Source: Dehalococcoidia bacterium (GTDB lineage: Bacteria; Chloroflexota; Dehalococcoidia; Plut-88900). From it: a stretch of 64,000 nucleotides of DNA. Each line of letters starts with the position of its first letter. Positions within the stretch are counted from its first letter, which is position 1. This document shows, piece by piece, positions 4,963-9,174 of the stretch. Made by a program: the position numbers and the translations under genes. Where the stretch lies: assembly GCA_965197645.1 (NCBI GenBank), contig OZ240219.1:32001-96000 (forward strand). The letters are read 5' to 3'. The notes beneath the pieces are model-generated. The model was not told where the DNA came from, ran no database searches, and worked only from the letters and a program-made list of their open reading frames with translations.

Positions 4963-7900
4963 ATGACGAAGCTCTTGGCATTGGCAACGGTGGCGATCAT
5001 CCTGGTGGTCCTGGCGAGCTGCGATAGGTCCAGCCCGACCACCGAGCCGGCTCGGCCCGACGAAACGCCGGTTTCCCAAACCTCTACACCCACGACAGCG
5101 CCGGTTACGACGGTGGAGGTGGTTCCGGGCCTTGCGCCGGACAGCTTCGTCGCCGTGGTTCCGAGCACCCTCCGAGCAGGCTACGCGGAGCGGGTCTCGA
5201 TCTCGCTGTTCAACGGGGACCGGCTGGTGGCGGGCAACGTGCTGCTGACCCTGAGCGACAGGGGGGGCACGGTGGGTACCGTCCTAGCCGCGAGGGTGGA
5301 AGGCACCGACAGCGTGGAGCTCCTGATACCGCAGCTGGAACCGGGCCGGTACAGGATCGAAGTTGAGGTGGAGGAGGTCGATGAGACCCGGAGCGCCCTC
5401 GTCGAGGTGGAGGATGGAGTGCTGCTGTTCGTCGAGACGGACAAGCCGATCTACAAGCCGGGCCAGACCGTCCATATCCGTCTGATGACGCTGGACGCTC
5501 TGCTCAAGCCGTGGCAGTTCGCCGCTACCATCGAGGTGCAGGACGCCAAGGGCATCAAGGTGTTCAAGAAGGAGGTGACTACAGACGAATACGGCATGGC
5601 AACAGTCGACCTGCCGCTGTCCACTGAGCCGAACCTGGGCGTCTGGAAACTCACGGCCCTTGCTGGGGCCCAGAAGACGCAGCTGGACGTGAGGGTGGAG
5701 GAGTACGTTCTGCCCAAGTACGAGGTTAACATCAACACCGACCGCGACTGGCTCCTCGCCGGCGATCCGGTCATCGGTACCGTATCGGGAGAGTACTCCT
5801 TCGGCAAACCGGTGGTGGGCGAGATGGAGATCGTAGCCTCGCGGTACGTCGGCCAGTGGGAGGAGTACGCTCGGTTCCAGGGCCCCATAGACGGCGAGAC
5901 GACGTTCAAGCTGCCGCCAGTGGGCTTCGTCGCCGGTGTTCCCCAGGCCGGCGGTCAGGGGAACCTCACGCTGGACGTGACCATCCGCGAGAAGGGCACC
6001 GGGTACGAGGAGAAGACCAGCAAGCTCATCACCGTAGCAGCCGCGCCGATAACGCTGAAAGTGATACCGGATAGCCTTGTATTCAAGCCTGGCCTGGAGA
6101 TGTCTTATTTGGTCGTCACCCAGGAACCCGACGGCTCACCAGCCGTCGATACCGTTGTGACCCTCACCCTCGCCTACTTGGACAGGGAGTTCGAGCAGAT
6201 TGACGAGGAGACGATCGAGGTTACGACGTCCAGAGGCAAGGCCATCGTGAAGGCTGCCCCGCCGTCGGAAGCCATAGGTCTGACCCTATGGGCGGAAGCC
6301 GGCGATGCGTACACCTCCCTGTCCCTGCAGTCAGGCCATTCGCCGTCGGGCAACTTCATCCACCTCGAGCAGGTGACCCAGGGCGACGTAAATGTCGGAG
6401 ATAGGGTGCGGTTCCGGGCCCACTCGACGCGCGAGGCGCGCAACTTCTACTACGAGGTGCTCTCCAGGGGCACCGTCATCTTCACCGACGTATCGTCGGG
6501 CCCGGATATCGAGTTCGTCTCCACCCAGCTGATGGCGCCGTCTTCCCGCATCCTGGTCTACCAGATCCTGCCCAACAACGAGATTGCCGCCGACTACCTT
6601 CCCTTCGACGTCCAGGCATCCTATCCCCACGACGTCCAGATCGGCTTCAGCGAGGAAGAGGTGAGACCGGGCACTGCAGTCGACATCAACCTCCAGACCC
6701 AGGGTGAGTCGCGGGTCGGTCTCGTAGCCGTGGACCGGTCGGTGTTCATCCTGGCTGAGAACCGGCTGAACCTGCAGCAGGTGTTCAACGAGTTGGAGAG
6801 GCTCTACCTGGAGCCACAAGTGGAGCTCCACGAGGCCCGGTTCACCGATGTCATCAACACCCGTGGGGCGGAGGAGACCTTCAGGGACGCCGGCGCCATC
6901 GTGTTGACGAACAAGGACGTCCCCTCGGGCGAGAGGATTGTGCGGGAGGTCTTGGAGATCATGGCTATGGAGGAGGTCATGGAGGAGGCTGCGGACTCGG
7001 TGTCCATCGCCTATAGTCTTGGAGTCGCCGACTTGAGCGCACACGAGGGGCTGGCCGAGGTGCAGCGGGTCCGCCAGTTCTTCCCCGAGACGTGGATATG
7101 GCAGGACGTCTACACCGGCGCCGACGGCGCCGCAGTCCTGCCCGTAGAAGCGCCTGACAGCATCACGACGTGGGTGCTCCGCGCCGTGGGTATGTCCAAA
7201 GAGCACGGCCTCGGCATAGGAGAGAGCGCCCTGCGGGTGTTCCAACCCTTCTTCCTGACGGTGGACCTGCCCTTCTCCGCGATTCGAGGCGAGGAGTTGC
7301 CCGTAAAGGTCGCCCTGTTCAACTATCTGGAGACGCCGCAGGAGATGTTCGTCAAGATCGAGGAGGCCGGCTGGTTCGACCTTCTCGACGACCCGTTGAA
7401 ATCGATCACCATAGACGCCAACGACATCGGCGGGGCCGAGTTCATGATTCGTCCCAGGGGTCTCGGCAGCAACTCAATCAAGATCACTGCGCGTAGCACC
7501 GAGGCCGCCGACGCCGTCATCAAGGAGCTTCTGGTGCAGCCCGAGGGAGTAGGCGTGGAGACCGTTGAAAATTACGTGGTCTCCGATGGCCATCACAGCG
7601 AGTTTGATACCTCACTGCCCTTCGACGCTGTCGAGGGGTCCGGCAGGGCCTACGTTGCGCTGACGGGCAGCTTCCTGACCCAGAGCATCGAGGGACTGGA
7701 CCAGCTTCTTAGGATGCCATTCGGGTGCGGGGAGCAGAACATGATCCTGTTCGCTCCCAACGTGTACATAGCGCGCTACCTGAAGGAAACGGGGCAACTG
7801 AAGCCCGAAATCATGGCCAAGGCCGAGCACCTGATGACCGTTGGATACCAGAGGGAGCTCACCTACCGGCGGAGCGACGGCAGCTTCTCCGCCTTCGGAG

Positions 7901-9174
7901 AGTCGGACCAATCGGGCAGCCTGTGGCTCACGGCCTTCGTTATGAAGACCTTCGCCGAGGCGAGGGCACTGATGTACATCGACCCTTCGGTGATCGACAG
8001 CGCCGCGGCGTGGATAGAGTCTCACCAGAAGAGCGACGGGTCGTTCGAGAACGTCGGTTTCCTGCACCACCAGGAACTGCTGGGCGGACTGCAAGGGAGG
8101 GACGCTCTGACGGCCTACGTGTCTATCGCACTGCTCGAGACGGGCAACAGCTTCTCAGCCGGACACGCCATCGGCTACCTGGAAGGCCGGTTGAACGAGA
8201 TCGAGGACCCCTACACGATGGCAATCACGGCCTATGCCCTGGAGCTGGCGGGCAGCCGGCACACCGATACGGCCTACGATAAGCTGATGTCGATGGCCCA
8301 GGTCGACGACAACGGTGCGTTGTACTGGGGCGAAGGTGGACCATCCATCGAACCGGATGCTGAAGACCACTACGGTCTGGACTATGGGAATCGTAGCGCT
8401 GCCATCGAGACGACCGGATACGCCCTTCTCGCCCTGCTGGAGCGTCAGGACCTGGTCAGCGCATCTCAGACGGCCAAGTGGCTGGTGGGACAGCGGAACG
8501 CACTGGGCGGCTTCGGCTCCACCCAGGACACTATCGTCAGTTTGCAGGGTCTCACGTCTTTCTCAACGAAGGTGCGCTCAAACGTCGATATGACTGTGGT
8601 GCTGGAAAGCGGCGGCTGGCGCCAGGAGGTAGACATTACTCCCGAGAACTCCGACGTGATGCAGATAGTGCAGGTCCCTCTCGGCGAAACGTTGGTCGTG
8701 ACGGCCGAAGGCGACGGGGACGCTGTCGTACAGTCGGTGCTGAGGTACAACGTCCCGGAGAGCCGGCCCGAGGTCCAGGAGGTGTTCGACATCACCGTCG
8801 ACTACGGCACGGACCACGTCAAGGTCGATGATCTCATTACGATCTCTACGTCGGTTACTTTCACGCCGCCAGCTCCCATCGAGGCGGGCATGGTGGTGGT
8901 CGACGTTGCCGTGCCCACGGGGTTTGAGCCCGTTCGACAGACCGTTAGCGACATAGTCGAGGACAACGCCAACGTCAAGCGGTTCGAGATCGCCGGTCGG
9001 AAGGTGATCCTCTACATCGAGGACATGCTACCTAGCGAGACGGTCTCCTTCGAGTTCCAGGCACGGGCGAAGTACCCGGTCCGGGCGAAAGAGGTGGTGT
9101 CCGAGGTGTACTCCTACTACCGGCCGGAGCATCGCGGCGAGACCCTTGCGGGCGCGTTGACCGTGATCCAGTGA
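4963..9174 (+). CDS. Alpha-2-macroglobulin/thioester-containing protein (animal TEP-like), lipoprotein
   Basis: Lipobox LASC; ETDKPIYKPGQTV, VEEYVLPKYEV, FFPETWIW, DSITTW, MPFGCGEQNM, GYQRELTYRRSDGSFSAFG, GGFGSTQDT, VYSYY; AAGGAG RBS. Confidence 0.95.
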   Translation: MTKLLALATVAIILVVLASCDRSSPTTEPARPDETPVSQTSTPTTAPVTTVEVVPGLAPDSFVAVVPSTLRAGYAERVSISLFNGDRLVAGNVLLTLSDRGGTVGTVLAARVEGTDSVELLIPQLEPGRYRIEVEVEEVDETRSALVEVEDGVLLFVETDKPIYKPGQTVHIRLMTLDALLKPWQFAATIEVQDAKGIKVFKKEVTTDEYGMATVDLPLSTEPNLGVWKLTALAGAQKTQLDVRVEEYVLPKYEVNINTDRDWLLAGDPVIGTVSGEYSFGKPVVGEMEIVASRYVGQWEEYARFQGPIDGETTFKLPPVGFVAGVPQAGGQGNLTLDVTIREKGTGYEEKTSKLITVAAAPITLKVIPDSLVFKPGLEMSYLVVTQEPDGSPAVDTVVTLTLAYLDREFEQIDEETIEVTTSRGKAIVKAAPPSEAIGLTLWAEAGDAYTSLSLQSGHSPSGNFIHLEQVTQGDVNVGDRVRFRAHSTREARNFYYEVLSRGTVIFTDVSSGPDIEFVSTQLMAPSSRILVYQILPNNEIAADYLPFDVQASYPHDVQIGFSEEEVRPGTAVDINLQTQGESRVGLVAVDRSVFILAENRLNLQQVFNELERLYLEPQVELHEARFTDVINTRGAEETFRDAGAIVLTNKDVPSGERIVREVLEIMAMEEVMEEAADSVSIAYSLGVADLSAHEGLAEVQRVRQFFPETWIWQDVYTGADGAAVLPVEAPDSITTWVLRAVGMSKEHGLGIGESALRVFQPFFLTVDLPFSAIRGEELPVKVALFNYLETPQEMFVKIEEAGWFDLLDDPLKSITIDANDIGGAEFMIRPRGLGSNSIKITARSTEAADAVIKELLVQPEGVGVETVENYVVSDGHHSEFDTSLPFDAVEGSGRAYVALTGSFLTQSIEGLDQLLRMPFGCGEQNMILFAPNVYIARYLKETGQLKPEIMAKAEHLMTVGYQRELTYRRSDGSFSAFGESDQSGSLWLTAFVMKTFAEARALMYIDPSVIDSAAAWIESHQKSDGSFENVGFLHHQELLGGLQGRDALTAYVSIALLETGNSFSAGHAIGYLEGRLNEIEDPYTMAITAYALELAGSRHTDTAYDKLMSMAQVDDNGALYWGEGGPSIEPDAEDHYGLDYGNRSAAIETTGYALLALLERQDLVSASQTAKWLVGQRNALGGFGSTQDTIVSLQGLTSFSTKVRSNVDMTVVLESGGWRQEVDITPENSDVMQIVQVPLGETLVVTAEGDGDAVVQSVLRYNVPESRPEVQEVFDITVDYGTDHVKVDDLITISTSVTFTPPAPIEAGMVVVDVAVPTGFEPVRQTVSDIVEDNANVKRFEIAGRKVILYIEDMLPSETVSFEFQARAKYPVRAKEVVSEVYSYYRPEHRGETLAGALTVIQ

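Follow-up and report, generated by a model that had tools for sequence, protein, structure and literature searches.

The window analysed here, a 64,000-nucleotide stretch from a Dehalococcoidia bacterium (assembly GCA_965197645.1, contig OZ240219.1, positions 32,001-96,000), contains at 4963-9174 on the + strand a gene for a thioester-containing protein (TEP) of 1403 aa. Judged from its sequence, this protein is a genuine and intact Chloroflexota member of the TEP family (A2M, CD109, TEP and complement) with eukaryote-type architecture, and its gene belongs to a Chloroflexota-wide clade within a broad bacterial and archaeal set of eukaryote-type TEPs. The protein probably acts at the cell surface as a monomer that traps proteases covalently after cleavage of its bait. 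An earlier note on this DNA, made from the letters alone, had described the gene as encoding an animal-type TEP in the form of a bacterial surface lipoprotein, and had left its source as either an ameliorated transfer from an animal host or a prokaryotic sister lineage of the animal proteins.

Domain architecture and family assignment

The open reading frame (ORF) was assigned from the ORF listing, Pfam and a structure-library search. It is uninterrupted over 1403 codons, begins with ATG and contains no introns. Pfam domains were counted as present only above the family cut-offs, and MG2, MG3, A2M_BRD, A2M, TED_complement and A2M_recep all passed, in this order. Along the + strand, the MG2 domain spans residues 155-245 (5425-5697; PF01835, 66.9 bits), the eukaryote-type MG3 model residues 247-313 (5701-5901; PF17791, 37.7 bits), the A2M bait-region domain (A2M_BRD) residues 470-597 (6370-6753; PF07703, 90.4 bits) and the A2M (MG7) domain residues 710-798 (7090-7356; PF00207, 86.5 bits). 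These are followed by a TED_complement-type thioester domain (TED) at residues 900-1199 (7660-8559; PF07678, 300.2 bits, profile positions 7-311 of 312) and a C-terminal MG8 or receptor-binding-type domain (A2M_recep) at residues 1307-1393 (8881-9141; PF07677, 65.7 bits). Thus the MG domains are ordered with the BRD before MG7, as in the eukaryotic proteins, and the TED carries the CGEQ thioester, read directly as part of the motif G-C-G-E-Q at residues 921-925 (7723-7737). CUB has no Pfam match of its own; it is indicated by the alignment to human A2M, in which residues 699-1389 correspond to 727-1456 in one stretch. An MG1-like region at about residues 55-150 (5125-5412) also has no Pfam match, and was delimited by an alignment with the N-terminus of amphioxus A2M that starts at residue 62. 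No Pfam match to anaphylatoxin or C345C/NTR domains was seen at E <= 0.01. The only bacterial MG model detected was bMG10, at 21.3 bits and under its cut-off of 26.2, and the bacterial MG set that marks the YfhM type (bMG1, 2, 3, 5, 6 and 10) is absent.

A search of solved structures gave human A2M as the best match (E 8.7e-144), and CD109 matched in a single stretch over residues 152-1390 (E 9.1e-137). Further matches included A2ML1, mosquito TEP1, C4 and C3, and the best 60 of the 83 matches were all eukaryotic, from a library that also contains bacterial A2Ms. In pairwise comparisons, amphioxus A2M scored 605 bits at 32% identity and was collinear over residues 62-1395; it carries FVQTDKGKYKPGQTV at the position of the MG2 motif that had been quoted for human A2M. 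The best segment shared with E. coli YfhM scored 43.5 bits, and a classical-type A2M from another Chloroflexota genome (L086) scored 106 bits at 22% identity. E. coli YfhM itself displays bMG1, 2, 3, 5, 6 and 10 together with CUB_A2MG, and reaches only 33 bits with TED_complement. Based on the pairwise scores and the Pfam sets, we conclude that the window protein is of the animal type rather than the YfhM type.

These results bear out much of the earlier note. The ORF of 1403 aa, the ribosome-binding site, the LASC20 lipobox, the Pro/Thr linker and the presence of only two Cys were all read in the sequence. The ten motifs it quoted are present in order, at residues 156, 245, 460, 706, 760, 774, 918, 961, 1182 and 1382, and the thioester stretch it quoted for human A2M is visible in the alignment to the solved human protein. 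Its view that the protein lies far closer to animal TEPs than to YfhM-type proteins agrees with the 605 bits for amphioxus A2M as against 43.5 for YfhM.

Conservation of the thioester, the histidine and the bait-like segment

Locus counts, alignments and neighbourhoods refer to the best 80 of 389 stretches that encode relatives, and the conservation alignment comprised the window protein and the 80 orthologs encoded at these loci (81 sequences). The GCGEQ motif was kept in 81/81. Position 1036 (8068-8070, + strand), whose aligned counterpart in human A2M is the first Asn of an 'NN' pair and which we take to be the catalytic-His position of C3, was His in 80/81 and Asn in the one remaining sequence. 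In contrast, the least conserved internal stretch of the alignment was a hypervariable bait-like segment at residues 651-700 (6913-7062, + strand), bounded by a conserved K[DN]VP.G and LAEVQRVRQFFPETW. The segment varied in length from 46 to 67 aa (median 56), and its position matches the site of the bait region in A2M. Mean pairwise identity was 0.32 within this segment, 0.66 within the TED and 0.58 for the whole protein. A conserved warhead beside a hypervariable bait is the mark expected of a working alpha-macroglobulin.

Distribution in Chloroflexota and integrity of the locus

A word-indexed protein search found 1232 homologs, of which the best 120 were 1046-1577 aa in length and 55-95% identical. 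Few homologs are named; those that are appear as 'alpha-2-macroglobulin' of a SAR202 cluster bacterium or Chloroflexi bacterium or, in entries from JGI, as 'CD109 antigen'. With one genome taken per species, relatives were encoded in 389 of at least 598 candidate stretches. Among the best 80 loci, 76 are labelled Chloroflexota (56 Dehalococcoidia, 3 Anaerolineae, 2 Chloroflexia and 15 unclassified), and several lie on closed chromosomes of 3-4.7 Mb. The other four loci (L036, L068, L076 and L080) are labelled as Actinomycetota or Sphingomonadaceae metagenome-assembled genomes. At 54% identity to the window protein, their TEPs resemble ordinary Chloroflexota members, and the labels could reflect mis-binning or lateral spread.

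In 301 evenly sampled Chloroflexota genomes, a strong TED_complement match (>240 bits) was found in 19, and about 40 others gave only weak matches, on ORFs of 1.7-2.3 thousand aa. The eukaryote-type TEP gene is therefore widespread yet patchy in the phylum. Eight of the long Chloroflexota A2M-like ORFs, 1829-2196 aa in length, were fetched (L086-L093, from genomes G036, G290, G055, G282, G295, G207, G001 and G154). The three that were scanned (L086, L088 and L092) contain bMG10, bMG3, bMG6 and Big_5 repeats and are, on that account, of the classical bacterial type. The thioester Cys has been lost in three of the eight (L088, L090 and L091). Three genomes (G056, G086 and G235) encode both the long type and a eukaryote-type protein.

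For a gene with such animal-like sequence it is important to consider an assembly chimera or contamination, in which a eukaryotic fragment has been fused to bacterial flanks. The animal-like sequence is all that speaks for it. The host genome was assembled as a single contig of 3,211,320 bp, with an estimated completeness of 94% and the window at 32,001-96,000, and contains a single TED_complement gene, with no bMG10 match that passes the cut-off. Both ends of the gene are spanned by exact short-read contigs: in run X1, which may be the source sample and hence not independent, contigs identical to the window bridge the 5' junction (4300-5556) and the 3' end (9119-9432). A contig from run X3, which belongs to a different study, covers 9119-9800 with no differences. 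Strain variants break up the contigs of the metagenome runs, and stretches without exact cover carry no weight. Furthermore, orthologs reside on the closed Chloroflexota chromosomes of 3-4.7 Mb, and the gene is intronless with a bacterial ribosome-binding site and a lipobox. We therefore regard a chimera as having a negligible probability; the linkage to bacterial flanks, for which the earlier note had asked for read mapping, holds, and the contig is not chimeric here.

Phylogeny and direction of transfer

An exhaustive search of representatives clustered at 50%, using residues 204-1403 as the query, matched 12,252 of them at E <= 0.001, of which 2,878 also reached E <= 1e-30. The top 150 are a mixture of low-Cys and high-Cys proteins. 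Named high-Cys proteins are eukaryotic (Oscarella, Branchiostoma, Danionella, a bird (Pluvialis), salmonid (Salmo) CD109 and Paulinella micropora), and named low-Cys clusters are prokaryotic (an Undinarchaeales/Methanopyri archaeon and Acidobacteriota, on contigs of up to 2.2 Mb). The eukaryotic representatives carry 8-55 Cys; of the 27 rows treated as eukaryotic in the first subset, 6 are named and the rest were assigned from having at least 8 Cys together with clan membership. The prokaryotic proteins that were scanned, from the GCFEQ clade and the groups prokA and prokB, all (4/4) displayed the eukaryote-type Pfam set. The thioester motif is kept in 11/12 prokA, 4/4 prokB and 72/73 eukaryotic sequences, and within the GCFEQ clade it reads GCFEQ in 30/31 and GCMEQ in 1/31.

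Four trees were built from two alignments. The 129-row set combined the window protein and YfhM with those 127 of the top 150 representatives that were at least 1150 aa long, and was used for tree 1 (FastTree LG+G, YfhM as the sole outgroup). The 50-row set was hand-chosen from the clades (1185 columns), with nine classical A2Ms (E. coli YfhM and eight Chloroflexota proteins) as an outgroup whose status is an assumption, and was used for trees 2-4 (IQ-TREE under LG+G4 in a quick and a careful run, and under LG+C20+F+G4 with posterior mean site frequencies (PMSF) in a careful run). The backbone was identical in all four, namely (classical, (GCFEQ clade, (prokA, (Chloroflexota, (prokB, eukaryotes))))), in trees that are without complement C3/C4/C5 sequences and in which most rows fail the composition test. 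In the careful mixture tree, the backbone nodes were supported (UFBoot/SH-aLRT) at 100/100, 100/99, 100/99 and 98/96, the eukaryotes at 100/100 and the Chloroflexota core at 96/99, and a single outlier, P0134, was left unplaced (36/1). Forcing the 22 prokaryotic eukaryote-type rows into one clade, a group defined after a tree had been seen, cost 45 log-likelihood units and was rejected (approximately unbiased test, p-AU 0.0115, LG+G4).

Two rootings argue against a firm root. When YfhM was the sole outgroup under the mixture model, its 5.46-long branch attached within an unresolved eukaryotic polytomy, and the prokaryotic eukaryote-type rows, 25 in number, came together in a single clan (99*). 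We set this rooting aside as too sparse; it still shows that the root is sensitive to model and sampling. In addition, MinVar rooting of the ingroup alone placed the root on the eukaryote stem, which makes prokaryotes and eukaryotes sisters with no nesting; for the whole tree, MinVar rooting fell between the classical proteins and all others. The placement of the root, and with it the nesting of eukaryotes among prokaryotes, is thus not fully robust. Unrooted, however, the result is robust: the eukaryotes make up a single clan that does not include the Chloroflexota clade.

This topology bears directly on the proposal that the gene was recently acquired by a symbiont from its animal host, has since been ameliorated and mimics host immunity as a 'eukaryotic-like protein'. 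The window protein is indeed collinear with animal TEPs at 30-33% identity, A2M-like domains are noted among the eukaryotic-like proteins of a sponge-associated archaeon in a passage of PMC6697440, and the metazoan-to-bacteria hypothesis is long-standing and is quoted in part of a 2026 review (PMC13069473). Against this, the eukaryotic clan is supported at 100/100 and the Chloroflexota clade stands outside it, two nodes off, and a recent animal-to-Chloroflexota transfer is therefore excluded by the branching. Orthologs with 51-81% identity extend across Dehalococcoidia, Anaerolineae and Chloroflexia, and Undinarchaeales archaea and Acidobacteriota are found in prokaryotic clades that branch deeper yet. 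The protein also lacks disulfide cysteines, and the GC content of the gene (0.62-0.65) matches that of its flanks (0.56-0.62). Overall, we consider such a transfer very improbable.

Of the two sources named in the earlier note, the ameliorated animal transfer thus fails, since the gene belongs to a Chloroflexota-wide clade (76/80 loci) outside the eukaryotic clan. The prokaryotic lineage related to animal TEPs fits the trees, but not as their immediate sister, since prokB lies closer. What we favour, without its being proven, is a single ancient inter-domain transfer in the direction prokaryote to eukaryote. That the whole animal TEP/A2M/CD109/complement family came from prokaryotic eukaryote-type surface thioester proteins through one such transfer is a proposal that we advance tentatively, giving it slightly less than an even chance.

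Several observations were made on individual clades. The GCFEQ clade comprises 31 representatives (P0175-P0270, for example P0187 and P0252) of 1500-1850 aa with the eukaryote-type Pfam set, and P0187 has an additional type II secretion G-like stretch. Of the prokaryotic groups, the small, long-branched prokB (P0152, P0159, P0179, P0186 and P0299-P0301), encoded on contigs as long as 2.98 Mb, lies closest to the eukaryotic clan (98/96). A homolog search with prokB found 5 close members, the 301 sampled Chloroflexota genomes held no comparable match, and the ESM Atlas returned, for P0152 and P0166, neighbours at the family level only. Finally, P0269 from the rhizarian amoeba Paulinella micropora (EukProt set) forms with P0178 a pair that is basal within the eukaryotic clan (99/95). 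Unless this protein is a contaminant, TEPs extend beyond Metazoa.

Proposed function

In order for the window protein to trap proteases at the cell surface, it would be exported and lipid-anchored via Cys20, with the Pro/Thr linker spacing the body from the membrane. With only 2 Cys in total, there is no Cys for disulfide-linked oligomers and a monomer is most likely. A foreign protease would cleave the exposed hypervariable bait segment at residues 651-700, upon which the MG/CUB/TED body would rearrange and expose the buried Cys922-Gln925 thioester. The protease would then be immobilised and sterically blocked at the surface, as with monomeric A2ML1, CD109 and E. coli ECAM. Since disulfide-linked oligomers like those of vertebrate A2M are not available, a monomer-like action through covalent thioester capture would be expected. 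Monomeric members of the family rely on such capture after bait cleavage, as stated for A2ML1 in the abstract of PMC9156758 and in published passages on bacterial A2M.

A second reading is that the protein is a covalent tagger or adhesin in the manner of complement and TEP1, in which the thioester, assisted by His, would bond to hydroxyls on a foreign surface, be it a virus, a particle, a competing cell or the matrix of a host. Since the protein is itself lipid-anchored, the cell would be covalently tied to its target, or the target would be marked, instead of a protease being inhibited. A His at the catalytic position confers hydroxyl reactivity in C3, C4B and CD109, and tetrameric A2M has Asn there. 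In addition to its presence in 80/81 Chloroflexota sequences, His is the majority residue of this column in every group, with 41/55 in the prokaryotic eukaryote-type clades and 46/73 in eukaryotic representatives. The membrane tether is in keeping with tagging, as are the giant cadherin-domain protein encoded next to the gene and the cadherin-TEP fusions of P0005 and P0068. However, the hypervariable segment of 46-67 aa resembles a promiscuous bait more than a single convertase site, a cadherin neighbour occurs in only 3/80 loci, and no conserved convertase-like or lectin-like partner accompanies the gene across the 80 loci. We consider tagging or adhesion unlikely.

Several results nonetheless weigh against the assignment as a protease trap. 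The conserved complement/CD109-type His, which favours water and hydroxyls, is as compatible with surface tagging as with protease trapping. No NCBIfam family and no PADLOC model matches the window protein. Across the 80 loci, no protease, penicillin-binding protein (PBP) or other partner is conserved nearby, and the genomic context therefore lends no support to the function. Finally, carriage is patchy (19/301 genomes), which indicates that the function is dispensable.

Comparison with known systems

With monomeric animal alpha-macroglobulins and CD109 (A2ML1, 7q1y; CD109, 8s3o; A2M, 6tav) the window protein shares the domain order from MG1 to MG8/RBD, a TED_complement-type TED, the GCGEQ motif and a bait region between BRD and MG7, with matches at E 1e-130 to 1e-144. 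Like A2ML1, it is likely a monomer, and the catalytic His is presumably shared with CD109. It differs in its prokaryotic host, in having 2 Cys as opposed to 8-55, in an identity of about 30-33%, and in that the glycosylation context of the animal proteins is not expected for it. CD109 has a C-terminal glycosylphosphatidylinositol anchor and undergoes furin processing, whereas the window protein has an N-terminal lipobox instead. Similarly, insect TEP1 (2pn5, 4d94) and complement C3/C4 share the MG ring, CUB with TED, the thioester and the His at the catalytic position. These proteins match at lower scores (TEP1 E 1e-101, C3 E 1e-77), and in contrast to them the window protein lacks Pfam ANA and C345C/NTR domains and is membrane-anchored rather than soluble.

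Classical type I bacterial A2M (YfhM/ECAM and Salmonella A2M; 4rtd, 4u48) resembles the window protein in being a lipoprotein-anchored, presumably monomeric thioester protein, and by analogy the two probably have a 'snap-trap' logic in common. In YfhM, however, the thioester is CLEQ and the gene adjoins pbpC, whereas the window protein has GCGEQ and no pbpC. Archaeal A2M homologs, as described in passages of Makarova et al. 2021 (PMC8416519), share the TED, CxEQ, signal peptides and a surface location, and are discussed there as possible immune or conflict components. The proteins covered in these passages are from Halobacteria and Methanomicrobia and vary in architecture. The same passages include no Chloroflexota and no full-length collinear eukaryote-type form, and the supplementary tables of that paper may list related archaeal proteins.

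A full-text literature search turned up no publication that deals with alpha-macroglobulins of Chloroflexota or SAR202, or with a prokaryotic clade of eukaryote-type TEPs, and none of the papers listed on how eukaryotic immunity arose from bacteria contained the word 'macroglobulin'. Passages of two 2026 reviews (PMC12939704, PMC13069473) place A2M in metazoans and Gram-negative bacteria only and repeat the unproven acquisition of A2M by bacteria from animal hosts. The earlier note had allowed that the protein might belong to an already described broad prokaryotic clade. The clade is indeed broad and auto-annotated, but no paper that describes it was found. Thus the sequences themselves are not new, as database auto-annotation already lists them as 'alpha-2-macroglobulin' and 'CD109 antigen', and what appears to be undescribed is that they form a clade, and where this clade falls in the tree.

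Together the comparisons point to a large prokaryotic family, spanning Chloroflexota, Acidobacteriota and archaea, with what appears to be the full animal-type architecture and chemistry and a position in the trees beside the eukaryotic clan or surrounding it. Phylogenetics and biochemistry can thereby test how thioester immunity arose, and the family supplies TEPs that are small, lack disulfides and are presumably not glycosylated, which may ease their expression in studies of mechanism. If the prokaryotic origin is true, it would reverse the textbook direction in which bacteria took A2M from animals. The Chloroflexota lipoprotein would then represent the ancestral state, monomeric and disulfide-free with GCGEQ, the catalytic His and a hypervariable bait, and covalent thioester tagging would have been a prokaryotic surface defence before animal innate immunity.

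Features of the gene and its neighbourhood

A Shine-Dalgarno-like AAGGAG is read directly at 4947-4952 (+ strand), 10 nt 5' of the ATG. A scan for sigma-70 promoters upstream of the gene gave none on the + strand and none above shuffled controls, and an Rfam scan gave no match. The signal peptide (4963-5022, + strand) carries the lipobox L-A-S-C and is predicted from the sequence to provide an N-terminal lipoprotein anchor, with Cys20 as the lipid-anchor residue. In 73/81 Chloroflexota sequences the lipobox position is occupied by an aligned Cys. The TEPs of three loci (L009, L010 and L022) have one Cys only, with an ordinary signal peptide replacing the lipobox Cys, and may be secreted or otherwise anchored. 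The signal peptide is followed by a linker rich in Pro, Thr and Ser at residues 21-50 (5023-5112, + strand), which differs among relatives and is gapped in many of them (in the 81-sequence alignment, occupancy is 0.5 and the majority frequency 0.42). The two Cys of the protein are Cys20 of the lipobox and Cys922 of GCGEQ, and the calculated isoelectric point is 4.5. The protein ends directly after the MG8 domain, with the anchor at the opposite, N-terminal end.

The TEP gene is divergently transcribed from an ORF at 3-4724 (- strand) that encodes at least 1574 aa, including a cadherin domain (92.8 bits), and extends past the start of the window. Cadherin homologs lie directly upstream of the TEP gene and on the same strand in 3/80 loci (L009, L010 and L022), and in the relatives P0005 and P0068 a cadherin domain is fused to the TEP. 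Genes downstream in the window encode a PIN-domain protein, a cytochrome c, a GNAT protein and two CoA-transferases. No pbpC-like neighbour was seen in the window, in agreement with the earlier note, and none of the eight downstream ORFs recurs beside the TEP gene in more than 3/80 loci. When the 675 flanking ORFs were clustered de novo, the commonest family was an ABC ATPase, found in 11/80 loci, and neither a transglycosylase nor a PBP domain turned up when the five most frequent families were searched with Pfam. The PIN-domain gene lies directly downstream of the TEP gene at 9303-9779 (- strand), and the CoA-transferases are two tandem family III paralogs at 14240-16788 (+ strand).

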